Positions 3,593-22,942 are shown, numbered from the stretch's first letter. The stretch: DNA of 64,000 nucleotides from Kofleriaceae bacterium (GCA_048500355.1 JASNYD010000006.1:544211-608210), one strand, 5' to 3'. A program made the numbers and translations. Notes: generated from the letters alone by a model not told the origin.

Positions 3593-4438
3593 TCACAGGC
3601 AGGCGACGAAGGCCCGCTCCACCGAGCCGGCGTAGCCGCCGCCGAAGAGGACGACGTGAACGAGCAGCGGGTAGAGCTGCCACAGCGGCACGCGCTCGTC
3701 CCAGCCCGGCTCGAGGGGGAAGGCCTCGTCGTAGGCGGCGAGGGTCCGCGGCTCGAGGCCGCCGAACAGCGCCAGCATCGCCAGGTCGACCTCGCGCGGG
3801 CCGCCGTAGACCGCCGGGTCGATCAGCGCCGGCGCGCCGCCGCTGACCAGCACGTTGCCGCTCCACAGGTCGCCGTGCAGCCGCGCCGGCGGCTCGGCCG
3901 GCGCCAGCGCGTCGGCGCGCGCGGCCAGCTCGTCCACCGCGCGCCGCCAGCGGGCGGGCCCACGGCCCAGCGCGATCGCGCGCTCGACCATCGGCGCCAG
4001 CCGGCGCTGGAACCACAGCTCGTCCCAGGTCGCGGCCGGCGCGTTGTCCTGGGGCAGGGTGGCGATGAAGCTCGGCGCGTCGAGGCCGAAGCGCGGCGCG
4101 CCGGCGCGATGGAGCGCGGCCAGGCCGCGACCGAGGGCGGCCGCGGTGTCGGCGCCGGCCGGCCCCGGCGCGAGCCACTCGAGGACCAGCGCGTGCGCGT
4201 CGTGGCCGAGCACGGCGGGCACCCGCAGCGCGCCGGCCGCCGCCAGCCAGGCCAGGCCGTGGGCCTCGGCGGCGAACAGGCCCGCGGGCGGCGCCGGGTC
4301 GTGCTTCACGAAGACGGTGCGGCCGTCGGTGAGCTCGGCGCGGAACGCCTGGTTGATGTCGCCGCCGTGGACCCGCTCGAGCCGCCGCGCCGCGGTGCCG
4401 GTGATCGCGACCAGCGACGCCTCGACGGCGGCGCTCAC
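3593..4438 (-). CDS. fructosamine kinase family protein (aminoglycoside phosphotransferase-like kinase)
   Basis: GTG start 4438..4436 overlaps the TGA stop of the upstream LMW-PTP (GTGA). Motifs LHGDLWSGNVL and DPAVYGGPREVDLAML are typical of the fructosamine-3-kinase/APH fold. Confidence 0.75.
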   Translation of the reverse strand: MSAAVEASLVAITGTAARRLERVHGGDINQAFRAELTDGRTVFVKHDPAPPAGLFAAEAHGLAWLAAAGALRVPAVLGHDAHALVLEWLAPGPAGADTAAALGRGLAALHRAGAPRFGLDAPSFIATLPQDNAPAATWDELWFQRRLAPMVERAIALGRGPARWRRAVDELAARADALAPAEPPARLHGDLWSGNVLVSGGAPALIDPAVYGGPREVDLAMLALFGGLEPRTLAAYDEAFPLEPGWDERVPLWQLYPLLVHVVLFGGGYAGSVERAFVACL

Positions 4439-4926
4439 GACCCGGATCCGGCGCCGGCCAGCCGCGGGTGCAGCGCGGCGACCAGCCCGGCGCACGCGGC
4501 CTCGCAGATGTCGAGGACGCGCTCGAAGCCGTCGTCGCCGCCGTAGTACGGGTCGGGCACCTCGGCGCCGTCGGGCGCGTCGGGGTCGTAGCTGCGGAGC
4601 AGCCGGACCCGGGCGCGGGCCGCGGCGTCGGGCGCCAGCCCCAGCACCGCGCGCTGGTTGGCGGCGTCCATGGTCAGGATGAGGTCGAAGCGCTCGAAGT
4701 CCACGCGCTGGAACTGGCGAGCGCGGTGCGCGAGCTCGATCCCGCGCGCCCGCGCCGCCGCCCGGGTCCGCGGGTCCGGCAGCTCGCCGACGTGCCAGCC
4801 GCCGGTGCCGGCGCTGTCGACGGTCACCCGCCCGGCGAGCCCGGCGCGCTCCAGGGTGAGGCGCATCACCCCCTCGGCGGTGGGCGAGCGACAGATGTTG
4901 CCCAGGCAGACGAAGCAGATCCTCAC
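4435..4926 (-). CDS. low-molecular-weight protein-tyrosine phosphatase
   Basis: N-terminus [20 protein letters not shown] carries the P-loop CX5R(S) signature. A DPYYG motif lies near the C-terminus. Confidence 0.85.
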
Positions 4927-4943
4927 GTCGCTGCCGGTGTACC

Positions 4944-6314
4944 ATGGCGGCGATGCGCCGAGCCGCCCTCTCCCTGCTCGTGCTCTGGCTCGGCGCCTGC
5001 GCCTTCGAGCCGCGCGGCGGCGATCCCGACGCCACCGCCACCGACGCCGCCACCGACGCGCCGGACGACGACGGCGACGCCGCCGTCCCCGACGCCGCCA
5101 CCGACGCCGCCGTCCCCGACGCCGCCGTCCCCGACGCCGCCGTCCCCGACGCCGCCGTCCCCGACGCCGCCACCGACGCCGCCGTCCCCGACGCCGCCAC
5201 CGACGCCGCCGTCGACGCCAGTCCCGACGCGCCGCCGCTGGTCGACATCGCCTACCTGCCGCCGGCGGCCGAGGTGCCCGGCACCGGCGACGTGACCATC
5301 AGCGGGCTGATCACGATCGACACCTCGCCCACCGGCTCGCGCCCGAACCTCGGCGCCGGCACGTCGTACTCGGTGGCGACCCCGACCGGGGGCGGCGCCG
5401 ACATCGTCGTCCTCCACGTCGACGACCTGACCATCACCGCCGCCGGCACGCTGCGCGTGGTCGGCGCCCGACCGTTCGCGATCGTCGCCGGTGGCGCGGT
5501 CGTGATCAGCGGCAGGCTCGACGCCAGCGCCACCGGCACCACCGTCGCTGGCCCCGGCGGCGGCGGCCCCAGCGCCGGCACCGGCGAGGGCGGCGACGGC
5601 AGCCACGCCGGCACGCGCACCGACAGCGGCGGCGGCGGCGCTGGCCACGGGACGAGCGGCGCGCGCGGCGGCAACGCCACCTGCAACCTCGGCTGCCTCC
5701 CGAACGTCGTGACCGCCGGCGGCGCCGGCGGCGTCGCGTACAACGCCGGGCTCACCCAGCTCGTCGGCGGCTCGGGCGGCGGCAACGCGGCGGCGGCCAG
5801 CGGCACCTGCCCCGGCCAGCCCGGCGGCGCCGGCGGCGGCGCCGTGCTGATCTACGCCGCGGGCTCGATCACCGTCGCCGGCGTCATCGCCGCGCACGGC
5901 GGCGGCGGCGGCCGCGGCGTCGCCTGCTCGGGCACGGTGTCGACCGCCGGGGCCGGCGGCGGCTCGGGCGGTCAGCTCGACCTGCAGTCGCCGTCGATCA
6001 CGGTCAGCGGTCAGATCGGCGCCAACGGCGGCGGCGGCGGCGGTGGCTCCGACGGCAGCGACGGCGACGGCCAGCCCGGCCAGGACGGGCGCGACGACGG
6101 CAACCAGGCCAGCGGCGGCGCCGGCAGCGGCAACGTGGGCGGCGACGGCGGCGCGGGCGGTGCCGGCGCCTCCGGTCCCGGCCAGGGCGAGGACATGGGC
6201 AACGATCAGAACGGCGGGGGCGGCGGCGGCGCGGTCGGACGGGTCACGATCCGCCACCGCGGCGCCCAGCCCACCGTCGCCTCGAGTCCGCCTCCCACCT
6301 ACATCCCCTACTGA
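4944..6314 (+). CDS. glycine-rich lipoprotein, paralog A of a tandem triplicated family (Cys-AFEPRG N-terminus, D/A pentapeptide-repeat linker, GGA(V/I/L) motifs)
   Basis: [26 protein letters not shown] lipobox. An in-frame 15-nt repeat encodes (AAVPD/AATD)n at 5085-5230. Conserved block [15 protein letters not shown] ... [15 protein letters not shown] ... [22 protein letters not shown] ... GRVTIRHRG. Confidence 0.7.
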
Positions 6315-6365
6315 CCCGGCCGCGAACGCTCGCCACGAGCGCCTCCCGGGGCGATACTCGGCCCG

Positions 6366-7784
6366 ATGTGGCCGTACCGCGTCGCCCCGGCGATCCTGGC
6401 CCTGGCGCTCCTGGCGCCCGCCTGCGCCTTCGAGCCCCGCGGCGAGGAGCTCGCGGCCGACGCCGCCCTGGCCGACGGCGCGGTCGACGCGCGCCCCGAC
6501 GACGGCGGAGGCGACGACGACGCGGCGGCCATCGACGCGAGCGTGATCGACGCCGGCCTCACCGACGCCCGCCCCGACGCCGCGATCGTCGACGCCGCGA
6601 TCACCGACGCCCGCCCCGACGCCGCGATCGTCGACGCCGGGGTCACCGACGCCCGGCCGCCCGACGCCGGCGTCACCGACGCCCGGCCGCCCGACGCCGG
6701 CGTCGACGCCGGCGCGGTCGACGACATCGTCCACGTCCGGGCGATCGACGAGCACCTCGGCACCGGCGACTGGACCCTGACCGCGAACGCGAGCGTGCGG
6801 ACGTTCGGCACCGGCGCTGGCTTCGACGTCCCGCTACCGGCCGGGGTGACCTTCGAGAACGCGCCCCAGGATCCGAGCGAGCCGACGCTCGCGATCCTCC
6901 GCGTCCGCCACCTCACGATCGCCAGCGGGGTCACCCTGCGCGTGGTCGGCGCCGCGCCGTTCGTCGTCATCGCCGAGAGCGTGACGCTCTCCGGCGTCAT
7001 CGACGCCGGCGCCCGCCTCGGCGTGGCCGGCGGCGGCGCCACGGCCGGGATCGGCGTCGGCGGCGACGGCGCGCACCGCGGCCTCTACTCCGACGGCGGC
7101 GGCGGCGGCGGCAGCTTCGCCACCAGCGGCGGCCGCGGCGGTAACGCCTTCTGCGACACCGGCTGCACCCCGAACACGACCGCGCCCGGCGGCGCCGGCG
7201 GCGCGCTCCACGGCGACGCCATGCTGACCACGCTCCAGGGCGGCTCGGCCGGCGGACGAGGAGCGGCCCCCGCCGGCTGCACGATGGGGCCCGTCGGCGC
7301 CGGCGGCGGCGCGGTCCAGCTCTACGCCCGCACGTCGATCGTCATCGGCGCGGGTGGCGGCGTCAACGCCGGCGGGGGTGGCGGCGCCCGGGGCGAGCAG
7401 TGCCTCGGCAACTGGGGCGCGGCCCACGGCGGCGGCGCCGGCGGCGCCATCTACCTGCAGTCGCCGAGCGTGGTCAGCGGCGGCGTCCTCGCCGCCAACG
7501 GCGGCGGCGGCGGCGGCAGCGCCGGGCAGGGCGGCCCGGGCCGGAGCGGCAGCGACGGCGCGCTCGGCACCACGCCCGCGCCCGGCGGCGCCGGCAACGG
7601 CAACCTGAGCGCGCGCGGCGGCGACGGCGCCGCGGGCACGACCGCCGCGGGCAACGGCGGCGACGTCGGCAACGCCGGCAACGGCGGCGGCGGCGGCGGC
7701 GGGGCCGGCCGCATCGTCATCCGCCACCGCGGCACGGTCATCGCCGGCACCACCAGCCCCCCCGCGGTGACGGCGGCCTACTGA
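6366..7784 (+). CDS. glycine-rich lipoprotein, paralog B
   Basis: [27 protein letters not shown]; linker (DARPDAAIVDA)n. Shares [57 protein letters not shown] and GRIVIRHRG with paralogs A and C. Confidence 0.7.
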   Translation: MWPYRVAPAILALALLAPACAFEPRGEELAADAALADGAVDARPDDGGGDDDAAAIDASVIDAGLTDARPDAAIVDAAITDARPDAAIVDAGVTDARPPDAGVTDARPPDAGVDAGAVDDIVHVRAIDEHLGTGDWTLTANASVRTFGTGAGFDVPLPAGVTFENAPQDPSEPTLAILRVRHLTIASGVTLRVVGAAPFVVIAESVTLSGVIDAGARLGVAGGGATAGIGVGGDGAHRGLYSDGGGGGGSFATSGGRGGNAFCDTGCTPNTTAPGGAGGALHGDAMLTTLQGGSAGGRGAAPAGCTMGPVGAGGGAVQLYARTSIVIGAGGGVNAGGGGGARGEQCLGNWGAAHGGGAGGAIYLQSPSVVSGGVLAANGGGGGGSAGQGGPGRSGSDGALGTTPAPGGAGNGNLSARGGDGAAGTTAAGNGGDVGNAGNGGGGGGGAGRIVIRHRGTVIAGTTSPPAVTAAY

Positions 7785-9004
7785 TGCGGCGGCGCGGCTC
7801 GTCCACGATCGTGGCGCCCGGCCTCGCGCTGGCGCTCACGCTCACCGGGGGGTGCGCCTTCGAGCCGCGGGGCGCGCTCGACGACGACGCGGCCGCGCCC
7901 GACGCGCCGGGGGACGACGTCGACGCCGCGACCACCGACGCGCTCGAACCCGACGCCGCGCCGCACCAGGTCGCCCACGTCGCCAGCGCCGACGCCACCC
8001 TGGGCAGCGAGGATCTGGTCTTCGACGCCGCGGCCACGATCGACACCGGCGCGCTCACGGTCACCGGGATCACGCTGCCGGTCGGGGTCGAGCTGGTCGC
8101 GGCCGCCCAGAGCCCGAGCGGCCCCGAGCTCGCCCTCCTGCGCGTGCGCGGCCTGACCCTCGCCGAGGGCGTGGTCGTCCGCGCGATCGGCTCGCGCCCC
8201 CTGGTGATCCTCGCCGAGACCGCGAGCATCGCCGGCACCCTCGACGCCGGCGCCCGCCGCGATCAACCCGGCGCCGGTGGCTCCGGACCGCGCGGTGGCA
8301 TCGGCCGCGGCGGCGACGGCGTGCGCGACGGCAGCTACGCCGACAGCGGCGGCGGCGGCGGCGGCTTCGGTCAGCCCGGCGCCAAGGGTGGCGACGCCAG
8401 CGGCGCCGCCGGCGGCGAGGGCGGCCTGGCCTTCGGCGACCCCAACCTCGACCTCCTGCTCGGCGGCGCCGGGGGCGGCGGCGCGTCGTCGAGCGGCTGC
8501 GACGCCACCACCGCCGGCGCCGGCGGCGGCGCGCTCCAGATCTACGCCCGCACGTCGATCGAGATCACCACCACCGGCGCGATCAACGCCGGCGGCGGCG
8601 GCGGCGGCGGCGGCCGGAGCTGCTCGTTGCAGTACCTGGCCGGGACCGGCGGCGGCTCCGGCGGCGCCATCTACCTGCAGTCGCCGGTCATCGCCAGCGC
8701 GGGCATCCTCGCCGCCAACGGCGGCGGCGGCGGCGGCGGCGCCAGCAACGACCACGGCGGCCCCGGCGGCGACGGCACCGCGACCACCGCCCGCGCCACC
8801 GGCGGCACCTCCGGCGGCGCCACCTACGGCGCGGTCGGCGGCCGGGGCGCCGCCCAGGTCGGCGACGCCACCGCCGGCGACAACGGGCCCAGCCTCGGCA
8901 ACGGCGGCGGCGGCGGGGGCGGCGGCGGCCGCATCGTCGTCAGCTACCGCGACACGCTCGAGGAGGGCACCGTCAGCCCGTCGGCCGTCAAGCGGCAGTT
9001 CTGA
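7784..9004 (+). CDS. glycine-rich lipoprotein, paralog C
   Basis: ATG 7784 overlaps the TGA stop of paralog B (TGATG). [30 protein letters not shown]; shares [59 protein letters not shown] and GRIVVSYR. Confidence 0.7.
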
Positions 9005-9053
9005 CCTGGCGTCCGGGGTCCGAGGCCCGACGGCCGACGGCCCTTCGACCGCG

Positions 9054-9486
9054 GAACCCGAGCCCGGAGCCGAACCCGAGCCCGAGCCCGAATCCGAATC
9101 CGAACCCGAGCCCGAATCCAGGCCCGAATCCGAATCCGAACCCGAGCCCGAATCCGAGCCCGAATCCGAACCCGAATCCGAGCCCGAACCCGGATCCGAA
9201 CCCGAGCCCGAATCCGAACCCGAGCCCGAGCCCGAATCCGAATCCGAACCCGGATCCGAACCCGAACCCGAACCCGAACCCGGATCCGAATCCGAACCCG
9301 AATCCGAATCCGAACCCGAGCCCGGAGCCGAACCCGAACCCGAATCCGAATCCGAACCCGAATCTGAGCCCGAGCCCGGAGCCGAACCCGAACCCGAATC
9401 CGAATCCGAACCCGAATCCGAACCCGAACCCGAGCCCGAACCCGAATCCGAACCCGAGTCCGAGTCCGAGCCCGAGCCCGAACCCG
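9054..9486. repeat. tandem hexanucleotide array (GARNCC)n, about 72 units (gaaccc/gagccc/gaatcc/ggatcc/ggagcc/gagtcc)
   Basis: Read directly: the array lies between convergent genes (paralog C stop 9004, HNH stop 9514). Every frame translates to low-complexity dipeptide runs (EP/SE/PN/GS/DS) with no credible start codon. Confidence 0.85.
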
Positions 9487-9513
9487 ATCGTCCGTCTCCC
9501 GGACGCCCCCAGC

Positions 9514-10056
9514 TCAGTCCGACAGCTCGCCGGTCCAGTACAGGTAGTCGCGCCAGGCGTCGGGCACCGACCGCAGGCTGACCCGGATCGTCACCGCCGG
9601 CACCCAGTCGGGCTGGACCGGCTGCGCGCGCAGCGCCATGCCGGCCTGGCGCGGCGTGCGCCCGCCCTTCCTGCGGTTGCAGTCGTGGCACGCCGTGACG
9701 ATGTTCGTCCACTCGGTGCGGCCCCCCTGCGAGCGCGGCACGACGTGATCGTAGGTGAGCTCGTCGACGCCCAGCTTGTCGCCGCAGTACTGGCAGGCGT
9801 AGCCATCGCGGGCGTAGATGTTGACCCGCGAGAACTTCACCGGCCGGTGGTGGCGGCGGAAGGCGCGCAGGAGCCGGACCACGCTCGGGATCTTGATGAT
9901 GAACGTCACCGAGCGGACGGCGTCGCCGTACTCCTCCACCACCTCGACCTTGCCGAGGAACAGGAGCGTGATCGCTCGCTGCCACGAGATGACCTTGATG
10001 GGCTCGTAGCTCTGCGACAGGAGAAGGGTCTTGTGACCCGGTGCCGTGGCCTCCAT
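9514..10056 (-). CDS. HNH endonuclease
   Basis: [47 protein letters not shown] contains the two CxxC pairs plus the H-N-H core. The start is placed at the internal ATG ([25 protein letters not shown]); the upstream ATG at 10113 is also possible. Confidence 0.75.
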
Positions 10057-15585: not shown

Positions 15586-16640
15586 GCCCGACCGCGGTCG
15601 GAGCTCGCGGGAACCGAACGGCGAGCCCCATCGCTCCGGTCGCCCTGAGCCCATCGCTCCGGTCGCCCTGAGCCCATCGCTCCGGTCGCCCTGAGCCCAT
15701 CGCTCCGGTCGCCCTGAGCCCATCGCTCCGGTCGCCCTGAGCCCATCGCTCCGGTCGCCCTGAGCCCATCGCTCCGGTCGCCCTGAGCCCATCGCTCCGG
15801 TCGCCCTGAGCCCATCGCTCCGGTCGCCCTGAGCCGCCCGAGCGCCAGCGAGGGCGTGTCGAAGGGCGACAAGCCGCGGCCGTCGCGCGAACGATGTCGG
15901 GCGCGTGCCGGAGGCCGTTCGTCGGGAGCCCTTCACCGACCGCGGTCGGAGACTGCGCGAACGAACGGCGAGCCCCTGCTCTCCGGTCGCCCTGAGCCCA
16001 TCGCTCCGGTCGCCCTGAGCCCATCGCTCCGGTCGCCCTGAGCCCATCGCTCCGGTCGCCCTGAGCCCATCGCTCCGGTCGCCCTGAGCCCATCGCTCCG
16101 GTCGCCCTGAGCCGCCCGAGCGCCAGCGAGGGCGTGTCGAAGGGCGACAAGCCGCGGCCGTCGCGCGAACGATGTCGGGCGCGTGCCCGAGGCCGTTCGT
16201 CGGGAGCCCTTCACCGACCGCGGTCGGAGACTGCGCGAACGAACGGCGAGCCCCTGCTCTCCGGTCGCCCTGAGCCCATCGCTCCGGTCGCCCTGAGCCC
16301 ATCGCTCCGGTCGCCCTGAGCCCATCGCTCCGGTCGCCCTGAGCCGCCCGAGCGCCAGCGAGGGCGTGTCGAAGGGCGACAAGCCGCGGCCGTCGCGCGA
16401 ACGATGTCGGGCGCGTGCCGGAGGCCGTTCGTCGAGAGCCCTTCACCGACCGCGGTCGGAGACTGCGCGAACGAACGGCGAGCCCCTGCTCTCCGGTCGC
16501 CCTGAGCCCATCTCTCCGGTCGCCCTGAGCCCATCGCTCCGGTCGCCCTGAGCCCATCGCTCCGGTCGCCCTGAGCCGCCCGAGCGCCAGCGAGGGCGTG
16601 TCGAAGGGCGACAAGCCGCGGCCGTCGCGCGAGCGATGAC
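15586..16640 (+). repeat. composite intergenic repeat: 4 macro-units, each an about 170-nt module followed by 4-10 copies of a 23-nt tandem repeat (cccatcgctccggtcgccctgag); the module contains the perfect palindrome ccgaccgcggtcgg
   Basis: Read directly: 23-nt periodicity (for example 15671/15694). Module copies begin near 15836, 16115, 16347 and 16577. The near-identical 61-aa ORFs at 15856, 16134 and 16366 are repeat artefacts. Confidence 0.85.
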
Positions 16641-16654
16641 GGCCGACGAGCCGG

Positions 16655-19242: not shown

Positions 19243-19350
19243 CGCCGTTCGAGGGCGGAGCCGGGCTCGACACGCGAGGCCCGAGGGCCCGAGACCCTGC
19301 GACGTCGCCCCTTCGGGGCTTCGCTCGGGGTGTGCGGGGGGAGGAGGTCG

Positions 19351-19816
19351 AGCCCGGGGCCGGATCCGGACCCGAGTCCGGATCCGAACCCGAACCCGAG
19401 TCCGGATCCGAACCCGGACCCGAGTCCGGATCCGAACCCGAACCCGAGTCCGGATCCGAGCCCGAGTCCGGATCCGAACCCGAACCCGAACCCGAACCCG
19501 AGTCCGGATCCGAGCCCGAGTCCGAGTCCGGATCCGAGCCCGAGCCCGAGTCCGGATCCGAGCCCGAGTCCGAGTCCGGATCCGAGCCCGAACCCGAGTC
19601 CGGATCCGAACCCGAGCCCGAGTCCGGATCCGAGCCCGAGCCCGAGTCCGGATCCGAACCCGAGTCCGGATCCGAACCCGAGTCCGGATCCGAACCCGAG
19701 CCCGAGTCCGAGCCCGAACCCGAGTCCGGATCCGAACCCGAACCCGAGTCCGGATCCGAGCCCGAGTCCGGATCCGAACCCGAGTCCGGATCCGAACCCG
19801 AGCCCGAGTCCGAGCC
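19351..19816. repeat. tandem hexanucleotide array (GARNCC)n with a gagtccggatcc 12-mer superstructure, about 77 units
   Basis: Same repeat family and the same + strand orientation as 9054-9486. Lies between the FAD-oxidoreductase stop (19820) and the EEP start (19242), both on the minus strand. Confidence 0.85.
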
Positions 19817-19819
19817 CGC

Positions 19820-21649: not shown

Positions 21650-22128
21650 GTCGGCCTTCGACACGCCCTCGCTCGCGCTCGGGCGGCTCAGGCCGACCGG
21701 AGAGATGGGCTCGGAGCGACTCGCTCGCGCTCGGGCGGCTCGGGCCGACCGGAGAATGGGCTCAGGGCGACTCGCTCGCGCTCGGGCGGCTCAGGCCGAC
21801 CGGAGAGATGGGCTCAGAGCGACTCGCTCGCGCTCGGGCGGCTCGGGCCGACCGGCGTGATGGGCTCAGGGCGACTCGCTCGCGCTCGGGCGGCGCGGGC
21901 CGACCGGCGTGATGGGCTCGGGCCGACCGGCGTGATGGGCTCAGGCCGACTCGCTCGCGCTCGGGCGGCGCGGGCCGACCGGCGTGATGGGCTCGGGCCG
22001 ACCGGAGAGACGGGGCTCGCCGTTCGTTTCCCGCGAGCTCCGACCGCGGTCGGTGAAGGGCTCAGGCCGACCGGAGAGACTGGCTCGCCGTTCGTTTCTC
22101 GCGATCGCCGGCCGCGGTCGGTGAAGGG
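21650..22128 (-). repeat. second, inverted copy of the composite repeat element (reverse complement of the 15586-16640 modules plus 23-nt repeat variants)
   Basis: gacacgccctcgctcgcgctcgggcggctc is the reverse complement of gagccgcccgagcgccagcgagggcgtgtc. gccgttcgtttcccgcgagctccgaccgcggtcggtgaagggctc is the reverse complement of the 15590-15630 module. ctcaggccgaccggagagatggg is a variant of the reverse-complemented 23-mer. Confidence 0.8.
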
Positions 22129-22129
22129 T

Positions 22130-22942
22130 TCAGGGCAAGCGCAGCTCGCCGCGCGCGACCAGCACGCCGTGGCCACCGAGGCGCACGCGGTCGCCGGCCA
22201 CGGTGACCGCCAGCTCGCCGCCGCGGCGGCTGACCTGGCGCGCCGCCAGCGTGGTCCGCCCCAGCCGCGCCGCCCAGTACGGCCCGAGGGTGCAGTGGGC
22301 GGAGCCGGTGACCGGATCCTCGTCGACGCCGTGCTGGGGGGTGAAGTAGCGCGACACCAGGTCGACGTCGCCGTCGCGATCGCCGGCGCCGGGCGCGGTG
22401 ACGATCAGGCCCTCGGTCGGCAGCGCGCCGACCCGCCGCAGCTCGGGGGCGAGGGCGCGGACGGCGGCGGCGTCGGCGACCACCGCCATCAGGTTGCGCG
22501 ACCGCCACAGCTCGACCACCGGCACGCCGATCGCCTCGGCCACCGCCGCCACCAGCGCCGGGTCGGCGACCGGCTCGGCGACCCGCGCCGGCAGATCGAG
22601 CACCAGCCGCTCGCCGTCGCGCTCGACCTCGAGCGGGCCGCTGCGGGTCGCGAAGCGGACGCGCGTGGTCCCGGGCTCGACCTCGTCCATCCACACCAGG
22701 GCGCTGGCCAGGGTGGCGTGACCGCACAGGTCGACCTCGGTGGTGGGGGTGAGCCAGCGCAGGCGGAGGCCGTCGGCCTCGCGCATGACGAACGCGGTCT
22801 CCGACAGCGCCAGCTCGCCGGCGATCTGCTGCAGGAGCTCGTCGGGCAACCAGCCCGCGAGCGGGATGACCGCCGCCGGGTTGCCGGCGAACGGGCGGGT
22901 GGTGAAGGCGTCGACGACGTAGTACGGCAGCGTGCGGGGCAT
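22130..22942 (-). CDS. PhzF family phenazine-biosynthesis-like isomerase
   Basis: MPRTLPYYVVDAFTTRPFAGNPAAV N-terminus; DLCGHATLASA and TGSAHCTLGPYW catalytic regions are typical of the PhzF/DAP-epimerase fold. 270 aa. Confidence 0.85.
   Translation of the reverse strand: MPRTLPYYVVDAFTTRPFAGNPAAVIPLAGWLPDELLQQIAGELALSETAFVMREADGLRLRWLTPTTEVDLCGHATLASALVWMDEVEPGTTRVRFATRSGPLEVERDGERLVLDLPARVAEPVADPALVAAVAEAIGVPVVELWRSRNLMAVVADAAAVRALAPELRRVGALPTEGLIVTAPGAGDRDGDVDLVSRYFTPQHGVDEDPVTGSAHCTLGPYWAARLGRTTLAARQVSRRGGELAVTVAGDRVRLGGHGVLVARGELRLP

Follow-up and report, generated by a model that had tools for sequence, protein, structure and literature searches.

Three tandem genes of a Kofleriaceae bacterium encode paralogous proteins whose predicted heads are most like gp38, the receptor-binding adhesin of T-even-like phages, and on the strength of that likeness each protein probably belongs to an undescribed kind of cell-envelope binding protein. 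The more specific reading, in which each is a lipid-anchored, tethered and non-enzymatic binding module of an undescribed family, we consider about evenly balanced; the head is read as a non-enzymatic binding module because it shares the construction principle of gp38. The genes are located on the plus strand of the window, the whole 64,000-nucleotide stretch of DNA that was analysed, at 4944-6314 (gene 1, 456 aa), 6366-7784 (gene 2, 472 aa) and 7784-9004 (gene 3, 406 aa). A preliminary description had proposed a tandem triplication of one family, and the three co-oriented paralogues were indeed 45-50% identical over their full length and 43-50% identical in the core (alignment A1). Each protein began with a signal peptide that runs into Cys-AFEPRG, followed by an acidic linker and a glycine-rich core of ~345 aa. 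The stop codon of gene 2 (TGA, 7782-7784) and the start codon of gene 3 (ATG, 7784-7786) share one base to give TGATG. The ATG of gene 3 sits within a longer GTG ORF, and P0022, a close homologue of gene 3, begins at the identical Met. The three genes would form one transcription unit or a closely coupled set; a scan of 4300-9700 for promoter and terminator consensus sequences gave no match and is uninformative at such a GC content. As previously noted, a hexanucleotide array adjoins the triplet, 50 bp downstream of gene 3 (9054-9487), and this array was missing from the equivalent site in related genomes.

The N-termini had the sequence features of lipoproteins, namely a positively charged n-region, a hydrophobic h-region and a lipobox-like end at a conserved Cys. 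The signal peptide of gene 1 (4944-5000) ended in LGAC, with the codon for Cys19 at 4998-5000, and the lipoboxes of genes 2 and 3 were non-canonical (APAC and TGGC). Among 76 family members, the Cys that closes the hydrophobic N-terminal segment was more than 90% conserved, in line with the lipoprotein-like N-terminus first proposed. The residual Cys of each protein numbered 2 or 4, an even count compatible with disulfides formed outside the cytoplasm. The CAFEPRG tag was located by exact DNA pattern match at 4998-5018 in gene 1, at 6423-6443 in gene 2 (Cys20) and at 7853-7873 in gene 3 (Cys24), all on the plus strand, and the back-translated pattern occurred exactly three times in the window compared to 0.32 expected from shuffles. 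The assertion that the Cys is invariably followed by AFEPRG held for all three proteins and within the lineage, but the family-wide form was C-[SAGT]-F-x-P-x-G, present in about half of the members; CAFEPRG is, on the sequences compared, the local form of this C-x-F-x-P-x-G tag. Two unrelated lipoproteins, L026:1840 and L126, also carried the C-x-F-x-P-x-G tag, but the majority of the remaining lipoprotein candidates in these loci lacked it. A metagenome scan with back-translated CAFEPRG gave at least 120 stretches and is no gauge of tag frequency, as 119 of those listed were chance matches in other frames or contexts; the unrelated lipoprotein with the exact tag, L126, was among the matches listed, and a homologue search with its head domain returned only L126 itself and a fragment.

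In Myxococcus xanthus, which belongs to a different order from the present lineage, Lys at +2 marks inner-membrane lipoproteins, and the residues at +2 and +7 decide between inner-membrane and matrix location, with Ala at +7 specifying the matrix (PMC3222651). Each of the present proteins would leave the cytoplasm through Sec, receive a lipid at the conserved Cys that closes the signal peptide and then be handed to the outer membrane, because the +2 residue is Ala, Ser or Gly and not Lys. FibA, an extracellular-matrix lipoprotein of M. xanthus that follows the +7 Ala rule, and the present proteins could both use the residues after the lipidated Cys for localisation, but the tag (+3 Phe, +5 Pro and +7 Gly) fits neither M. 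xanthus rule.

The acidic linkers, at 5019-5252 (gene 1), 6444-6731 (gene 2) and 7874-7975 (gene 3) on the plus strand, measured 85, 103 and 41 aa from the Cys, respectively. They contained 20-28% D/E and almost no K/R (21 D/E and 1 K/R in gene 1), and the repeat unit differed between orthologues. Tandem Repeats Finder (TRF) analysis placed in-frame arrays with periods of 15, 27 and 42 at 5025-5219 in gene 1, where the repeats were of the (AAVPD/AATD) type, and arrays with a period of 42 at 6547-6723 and of 30 at 6548-6704 in gene 2. The short linker of gene 3 was without a clear repeat and contained a single weak 2.7-copy array at 7921-7960. Thus, the in-frame linker repeats of the preliminary description were recovered in genes 1 and 2, but the 11-mer assigned to gene 2 was not; this linker instead carried two copies of a 14-aa unit, TDARPDAAIVDA(A/G)(I/V), followed by two copies of the 10-aa unit TDARPPDAGV. 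The rapid evolution suggested for the linkers was borne out as repeat turnover when strains were compared, with differing units across orthologues and with indels and rearrangements even between strains that were 97-99% identical, including a 4-aa indel in the gene 2 linker compared to the relative L016. In the structural model of gene 3, residues 1-60 were disordered (pLDDT 49-58), and the homologous residues of gene 1 belong to its linker. An acidic, disordered tether of 35-107 residues with fast-evolving xDAxx repeats would keep a rigid head of ~345 residues off the membrane.

We infer that these proteins are lipidated, reach the outer membrane, are exposed at the surface and function in binding. 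They may instead be envelope lipoproteins that face the periplasm, with a head that serves a structural or spacing role, for example by contacting peptidoglycan or an envelope machine, and we hold this to be a less probable but serious alternative. The outer-membrane lipoproteins of well-studied proteobacteria face the periplasm by default, Lol trafficking generally benefits from a flexible linker after Cys+1 (PMC11784454), and the +7 residue of the present proteins is Gly rather than the matrix-linked Ala of M. xanthus (PMC3222651). There was also no gene for surface-export machinery nearby. However, the family occurs in one to three copies at one locus with further loci per genome, and the fast-evolving loops and the repeat turnover of the tether would be unusual in housekeeping parts of the envelope. 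Furthermore, the core was repeated 11 times, with TSP3-like spacers between the copies, in a secreted 7,437-aa signal-peptide protein, and it was also found in Sec-signal proteins encoded beside PKD/TIG/RHS giants.

The cores, at 5253-6311 (gene 1, 30.7% Gly), 6732-7781 (gene 2) and 7976-9001 (gene 3) on the plus strand, were assigned to a glycine-rich beta-helix from alignment A1 and composition for genes 1 and 2, and from an AlphaFold2 (AF2) model for gene 3. This model had a core pLDDT of about 97 and a pTM of 0.83, and a truncated model gave 97 and 0.93, respectively. It showed stacked short strands that matched known right-handed parallel beta-helices, and half of the predicted domain was without a close solved analogue. 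The strand segments (residues 65-154, 250-268, 295-310 and 383-406) contained 4-10% Gly, and the excursions between them (residues 155-249, 269-294 and 311-382, or 95, 26 and 72 aa) contained 41-54% Gly. The core is thus predicted to be a beta-helix with three turns widened into glycine-rich excursions, and structure prediction and structural matches agree on the beta-helix-like fold that had been suspected. The LRVVGARPF-type block, the GGA(V/L/I)xx...ANGGGGGG motifs and the terminal GR(I/V)xxxxR noted earlier were all present in alignment A1, and the proteins ended directly behind the last beta-helix strands (GRIVxxxR...SPxAxxxY/F).

Conserved Gly motifs alternated in the family alignment with variable, indel-prone segments. 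The invariant positions were almost all Gly, and the few conserved non-Gly residues (Asn before Gly runs, Gln and Pro) look structural; the conserved polar residues N312, N373 and Q252 adjoin Gly runs, like structural ladders. In the proposed head, a right-handed beta-helix, the Gly runs would act as scaffold and the variable segments as loops, and the three paralogues would present three different loop sets. The head may bind a polysaccharide, a matrix component or the surface of prey or of another cell. Alternatively, it could be a beta-helix enzyme, for example a polysaccharide lyase, hydrolase or epimerase, with exopolysaccharide or prey cell walls as its substrate. This is improbable given that the invariant positions are nearly all Gly, that the three polar residues adjoin Gly runs, that the top structural matches were non-enzymatic adhesin or secretion domains, and that no Pfam or NCBIfam enzyme family was matched, the three window proteins giving none even at E<=1. 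We consider it very unlikely that the head binds ice or acts like an antifreeze protein, or that it serves at the surface to bind minerals or Ca2+, since its long strands lack a regular TxT/TxN ladder and RTX GGxGxD repeats are absent. The RTX beta-roll (PF00353) was rejected: no protein had more than one loose GGxGx[DN] match, and none matched in Pfam.

A search of 1.84 billion cluster representatives gave at least 2,413 representatives at 50% identity that matched the family at E<=1e-30, and the family HMM matched genes 1, 2 and 3 with E-values of 1e-99, 1e-110 and 9e-118, respectively. The family is abundant in the class Polyangia, with members in MAGs of Kofleriaceae, Haliangium, Polyangia and Labilithrix. 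Its core extends to further phyla, and Gammaproteobacteria, Verrucomicrobiota and Planctomycetes have relatives. All 778 word-indexed homologues were labelled 'hypothetical', and the contig index searched held no record of the exact gene 2 product. The three window proteins had no match in Pfam or NCBIfam at E<=1 or in PHROGs at E<=0.1, and the 76 aligned members gave a single chance-level Pfam match (DUF1509, E 0.017, in one member). Searching PDB sequences with the family profile yielded nothing beyond a chance match (CBM74, E 0.55), and literature searches for Hoch_1213 and for myxobacterial glycine-rich beta-helix lipoproteins found nothing. The family is therefore undescribed, in that Pfam, NCBIfam and the literature searched do not contain it, as the preliminary description had supposed when it could not place the proteins.

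The resemblance to chlamydial Pmp-type adhesins that was raised at the outset did not hold. In both, GGA(I/L/V) tetrapeptides stand at the start of long beta-helix strands and the genes form multigene families with tandem copies, but each of the present proteins contains only 2-3 GGA[ILV] and no FxxN, and a predicted N-terminal lipid anchor takes the place of the C-terminal barrel. Neither Chlam_PMP (PF02415) nor an autotransporter beta-barrel was matched in Pfam by the three proteins (E<=1) or by the 76 members (none to Chlam_PMP at E<=0.1), and homology to these autotransporters is effectively refuted.

The locus had the order fructosamine-kinase-like / LMW-PTP / array / HNH / FeoB, and the syntenic loci in Kofleriaceae MAGs held 3, 3, 3, 2, 2, 2, 1 and 1 copies. 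In a neighbour-joining (NJ) tree, these copies fell into three clades specific to array position (c1, c2 and c3 for genes 1, 2 and 3), and gene 1 grouped with the first-position copies of L016, L003, L009, L004 and L030. The triplication is thus, as judged from the tree, ancient. Tandem arrays were also found at an unrelated locus (L002), and further family loci were present per genome; none of the loci examined had a conserved partner gene that hinted at a ligand. With a GC content of 79-80%, long open stretches occur in all frames, with overlapping ORFs of 500-800 aa on both strands, but the idea that the three ORFs are non-genes arising from extreme-GC, low-complexity sequence is already refuted by a GC3 of 0.96-0.98 restricted to the called frame (0.963 in gene 1 and 0.977 in gene 2, compared to 0.66-0.78 at the other two codon positions), a dN/dS of 0.20 for gene 1 and 0.15 for gene 2 against the near-identical (97-99%) locus L016, thousands of homologues that include low-GC organisms, and the confident structure model. 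Full-length orthologues with a core identity of 58-69% were present in other genomes. The frame, on whose conservation in relatives the earlier reading had been made to depend, is conserved, and the three ORFs are real genes under purifying selection.

The polyglycine-II lattice is a fold element so far known in a handful of proteins (phage gp38, the snow-flea antifreeze protein and, by prediction, PE_PGRS). It is conceivable, although we rather doubt it, that the excursions form such lattices and that, jointly, the C-x-F-x-P-x-G tag and the xDAxx tether constitute a portable N-terminal module. If the lattices are real, the present family, with thousands of members in Myxococcota, would be the first large group of cellular (non-phage) binding proteins built from a beta-helix and a polyglycine sandwich. 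A fold element so far known in few proteins would then prove to be common among soil myxobacteria, and would offer a common way to build variable binding surfaces on an all-glycine scaffold. If the module is portable, tag and tether would steer a subset of Polyangia lipoproteins to the surface or the matrix. We know of no lipoprotein sorting rules for Polyangia, and the tag beside the predicted lipidated Cys is a concrete and mutable candidate signal. Irrespective of these proposals, a large and conserved family (at least 2,400 clusters at 50% identity and E<=1e-30) under purifying selection is missing from Pfam, NCBIfam and the searched literature, and an ancient, position-stable triplet with variable copy number is a convenient system in which to follow the divergence of putative surface-protein paralogues.

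A comparison with known systems placed several at a distance. The TPS domains of the TpsA adhesins EtpA, HMW1, HxuA and FHA superposed on only about one third of the core, and TpsA proteins are secreted through a TpsB pore whereas lipid anchoring is predicted here; TPS-domain membership (PF05860) was rejected, with no Haemagg_act Pfam match, no NPNL or NPNGI motif and no TpsB-like neighbour. SitA-type lipoprotein toxins were rejected as well, with neither a toxin domain nor an immunity gene. The mycobacterial PE_PGRS proteins form a very glycine-rich, cell-envelope multigene family that tolerates indels (PMC10216338), and the present family is likewise very glycine-rich, multigene and indel-tolerant. 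In contrast to PE_PGRS, beta-helix strands are integral to the fold here and the N-terminus is a signal peptide with an acidic linker. Membership was rejected in the absence of a PE domain (Pfam), GGA/GGN triplet regularity and GRPLI. One H. ochraceum homologue is listed in UniRef as 'PE-PGRS family protein'. Also counted among the closest known systems were the ice-binding proteins with a beta-helix and PL002-1792, an antifreeze-like lipoprotein from Flavobacterium.

The closest likeness of the head was to gp38 (S16, PDB ID: 6F45 chain D; PP01, 9V85). Sequence homology was not detected: the family profile aligned to S16 gp38 with an hhalign probability of 1%, and the glycine-rich half had no tblastn match among 50,697 phage records with the low-complexity filter on. 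The present proteins would be cellular lipoproteins on an acidic tether, whereas gp38 caps a phage fibre and has a helical domain for attachment to gp37; the present core is also larger, with 345 aa, three excursions and an additional N-terminal beta-helix section. The shared feature is architectural: turns of 18 and 77 aa in gp38 contain >50% Gly (PMC6851490), and in the predicted model of gene 3 beta-helix turns are similarly widened into long glycine-rich excursions (26, 72 and 95 aa; 41-54% Gly). In both proteins a G8 run stands right behind a strand-turn-strand unit (local hhalign of P3 251-282 against gp38 133-163, probability 1%), and in both gp38 and the present family conserved Gly motifs alternate with variable segments.

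Genes 1, 2 and 3 (4944-6314, 456 aa; 6366-7784, 472 aa; 7784-9004, 406 aa) are co-oriented, with 51 bp between the first two, and the last base of the gene 2 stop codon is also the first base of the gene 3 start codon (TGATG). They had been described as three paralogues built from shared blocks, and all of these blocks were recovered when the three proteins were aligned, with an identity of 45-50% over the full length and 43-50% over the core of about 345 residues. The window is extremely GC-rich, and around the triplet the GC content was 79-80%, at which every frame is open; therefore, the coding quality of the three genes was checked. GC3 was 0.96-0.98 in the called frame only, and a comparison with L016, a contig 97-99% identical to the window, gave dN/dS ratios of 0.20 and 0.15. 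There are no lysine codons in genes 1 and 2 and two in gene 3, alongside 14-23 arginines, and the extreme GC content may be a simple cause of this scarcity. A divergent gene resembling LMW protein-tyrosine phosphatases (4435-4926, minus strand) starts 17 nt from the gene 1 start codon, and both promoters must therefore lie inside neighbouring coding sequences. A fructosamine-kinase-like gene (3593-4450, minus strand) differed from L016 by eight nonsynonymous and three synonymous changes (dN/dS ~1, from small numbers); the ratios for its neighbours were 0.04-0.2.

The order fructosamine-kinase-like gene, divergent LMW-PTP, family array, convergent HNH gene and FeoB is kept in eight other loci. 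At this syntenic site, the window, L003 and L004 each hold three family copies, L016 at least two before the contig ends, L005, L009 and L030 two each, and L033 and L011 one each. A neighbour-joining tree of the cores showed three clades that followed gene position, and core identity was 58-69% between orthologues compared to 43-50% between the window paralogues. The triplication is therefore older than the split of these lineages. All three copies are retained under constraint, with occasional loss, which argues for non-redundant functions. A separate tandem array of three family copies was found at an unrelated locus (L002), and more single copies were present elsewhere in the same genomes (L001/L015). 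No gene partner common to the different family loci was found.

The space between gene 3 (stop at 9004) and the convergent HNH-like gene (stop at 9514) is filled by a 434-bp imperfect hexanucleotide array (9054-9487). It consists of about 72 units with the consensus GAACCC, its variants are chiefly the transitions GAGCCC and GAATCC, and all six frames are open across it. The same space measures only 63, 6 and 41 bp in L003, L004 and L005, which marks the array as an insertion or expansion specific to this lineage. Hexamers of the same CCGA type (TRF periods 18/24/48) also build a second array of about 470 bp at 19349-19818. Other repeats in the window are a tandem 23-bp unit, CTCCGGTCGCCCTGAGCCCATCG, at 15627-16642, with 232- and 278-bp higher-order repeats of 98-99% identity, and separate arrays with periods of 52/103, 75 and 68 bp at 21668-22134.

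The preliminary description could not place the proteins in a described family, and the database searches agreed. The three window proteins had no match in Pfam or NCBIfam at E<=1 or in PHROGs at E<=0.1, a Pfam scan of 76 family members returned only DUF1509 in one member at chance level (E 0.017), and a PDB sequence search gave only a chance match. A word-indexed search found 778 homologues of 360-480 aa, every one of them named 'hypothetical protein'; their sources are Kofleriaceae, Haliangium ochraceum and other Myxococcales. In H. ochraceum, which like Kofleria flava is a relative available in culture, the family is represented by Hoch_1213 and its paralogues. When 1.84 billion cluster representatives were searched with a HMMER profile, 9,962 proteins passed E<=1e-3 and 2,413 passed E<=1e-30, and matches in species-representative genomes came from Kofleriaceae, Haliangium, Polyangia, Labilithrix and unclassified 'Deltaproteobacteria' MAGs. 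Beyond Myxococcota, 11 copies of the core were found in P0156, a 7,437-aa signal-peptide protein of a low-GC organism, where they are set apart by TSP3-like, Asp-rich DxDxDG spacers. Pfam PF18884 was assigned to fragments related to this protein (P0233/P0234), one of them from a Planctomycetes MAG. The proteins of another related family (P0235-P0328; about 450-500 aa), found in Gammaproteobacteria, Verrucomicrobiota, Planctomycetes and other phyla, carry a Sec signal peptide of the ordinary kind. Their mature N-terminus is conserved ('AFDSGSTGADGAFNPT', also written (A)FDSGSTGADGAFNPT), and a further domain (...GE(K/R)VE(K/R)V...ITxSGKEY) lies at the C-terminus. The Polyangia HMM matched the same motifs in 95 of 96 of these proteins, and two of their genes (loci L036 and L038) adjoin giant PKD/TIG/Beta_helix_4 or TIG/RHS-toxin genes. 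The homologues therefore form a broad unannotated extracytoplasmic domain superfamily, of which the window triplet belongs to the Polyangia lipoprotein branch.

Each of the three proteins starts with a signal-peptide-like segment ending in a Cys that is followed by AFEPRG. This Cys, which closes the hydrophobic segment, was kept in more than 90% of the 76 aligned members, and the back-translated tag pattern occurred three times in the 64-kb window compared to 0.32 expected. AFEPRG had been called invariable; this held for genes 1-3, and beyond them it turned out to be a local form of C-[SAGT]-F-x-P-x-G. C-x-F was present in 84 and C-x-F-x-P in 44 of the 163 members whose Cys was placed automatically, with a lipobox filter that missed many obvious cases. 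In one subfamily (P0026, P0032, P0036, P0048, P0049, P0089, P0098 and P0099), CxFxP is replaced by a small Cys-rich knot behind the lipobox, of the C..DDDC..GRCE..G.CSF.D..C type, and in another (P0008, P0009, P0011, P0017, P0056, P0077, P0078 and P0081) by a GC(R/A)xLLGI(D/E) start. Nearly all non-family lipoprotein candidates in about 463 kb of related loci start with CG, CS(D/S), CD or CT; the one with the tag is a small Cys-rich protein (L026:1840, plus strand) with CSFYPAESS and an acidic linker. Among the metagenome matches listed, which were mostly chance, an unrelated lipoprotein candidate (L126:574, plus strand) has the exact CAFEPRG followed by an Asp/Ala/Pro/Ser linker, and this 241-aa, Cys-containing protein (P0329) is found on 21 contigs. 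The tag thus marks mainly the glycine-rich family and can sit on other heads, and such a distribution is more in keeping with a signal for sorting or recognition than with a structural element of the head. In M. xanthus, Lys at +2 marks inner-membrane lipoproteins and Ala at +7 marks matrix lipoproteins (PMC3222651). The family has Ala, Ser or Gly at +2 and Gly at +7, so by this distant rule the outer membrane would be the default.

Just behind the tag are Asp/Ala/Pro-rich linkers made from in-frame tandem repeats, at 5025-5219 in gene 1 (periods 15/27/42) and at 6547-6723 (period 42) and 6548-6704 (period 30) in gene 2; the one array in gene 3 is weak. The in-frame arrays proposed earlier were thus present, and the 11-residue unit assigned to gene 2 was corrected to units of 14 and 10 residues. 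Tag and head are separated in every orthologue by a segment of 35-107 residues, which contains 20-28% Asp and Glu and almost no Lys or Arg. Its units are of the xDAxx type (AVPDA, IDAPP, AIDAA, MIDAA, TDAAA) and differ by orthologue. Even L016 differed from the window, by the arrangement of the units in gene 1 and by a 4-aa indel in gene 2, in support of the suggestion that the linkers turn over by slippage.

An AlphaFold2 model of the gene 3 protein, built with a 76-sequence alignment, had a mean pLDDT of 90.4 and a pTM of 0.83, with a pLDDT of about 97 over residues 61-406 and of 49-58 in the tag and linker, which were modelled as disordered. When residues 155-406 were modelled alone, the pLDDT was 97 and the pTM 0.93. 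The predicted fold was of the right-handed beta-helix class, as had been anticipated. DSSP assigned regular short rungs to residues 78-154, followed by only four long parallel strands (140-149, 250-261, 295-305 and 383-393), each with a short strand behind it. The segments 155-249, 269-294 and 311-382 (95, 26 and 72 aa) were without helix or regular strand, and Gly made up 41-54% of these excursions compared to 4-10% of the strand segments. The excursions may adopt polyglycine-II geometry, which is characterised by phi of about -75, psi of about +145, three residues per turn and N-H...O and C-alpha-H...O networks between helices. Column conservation showed invariant Gly motifs alternating with variable, indel-prone segments, with indel hot spots after residues 205, 235, 282 and 323 and a variable stretch at residues 342-372.

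Four considerations led to the preferred reading, to which we give about an even chance: the acidic tether, the variability of the loops that a rigid scaffold carries, the repeated use of the core in a giant multi-module secreted protein, and the likeness to gp38 and the TpsA adhesins. On this reading, each protein is a non-enzymatic binding module held by a lipid anchor and a tether, which would probably sit on the outer membrane and plausibly be exposed at the surface. The number of Cys residues besides the lipobox Cys is even (two or four), which would fit disulfides outside the cytoplasm. A structural role facing the periplasm is the leading alternative and is less probable; the variable loops speak against it. 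The proteins are improbable as carbohydrate-active enzymes: D187 and H65 are the only conceivable catalytic residues, the invariant positions are nearly all Gly, and the few conserved polar residues that adjoin Gly runs (N312 and N373, before the runs, and Q252, S398 and P399) resemble structural ladders. Ice or mineral binding is more doubtful still. The suggested resemblance to chlamydial Pmp proteins was not borne out, as the proteins do not belong to the Pmp family, and homology is very unlikely. That the genes are an artefact, which open frames at such GC content might invite, has a negligible chance given their GC3 and dN/dS.

The family was also compared with known systems. The proteins are not members of the TPS, PE_PGRS or RTX families or of the gp38 sequence family; the sole hhalign match to gp38 had a probability of 1%, which is not significant, and placed the gp38 G8 helix 3 region on residues 251-282 of the gene 3 protein. 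A Foldseek search with the head model returned nothing significant, and its best three matches, themselves not significant, were the gp38 receptor-binding proteins of phages PP01 and S16. In gp38, turns of 18 and 77 residues of a five-ring beta-helix extend into a polyglycine-II 'sandwich' with more than 50% Gly and ten conserved glycine-rich motifs, between which hypervariable loops bind the receptor (PMC6851490). This published topology agrees with that of the predicted family head. A more novel possibility, that polyglycine-sandwich proteins form a widespread cellular family whose lipoprotein sorting tag is portable, appears rather unlikely. The family itself is undescribed, and the kind of protein it would represent, beta-helical envelope binding proteins, is already known.
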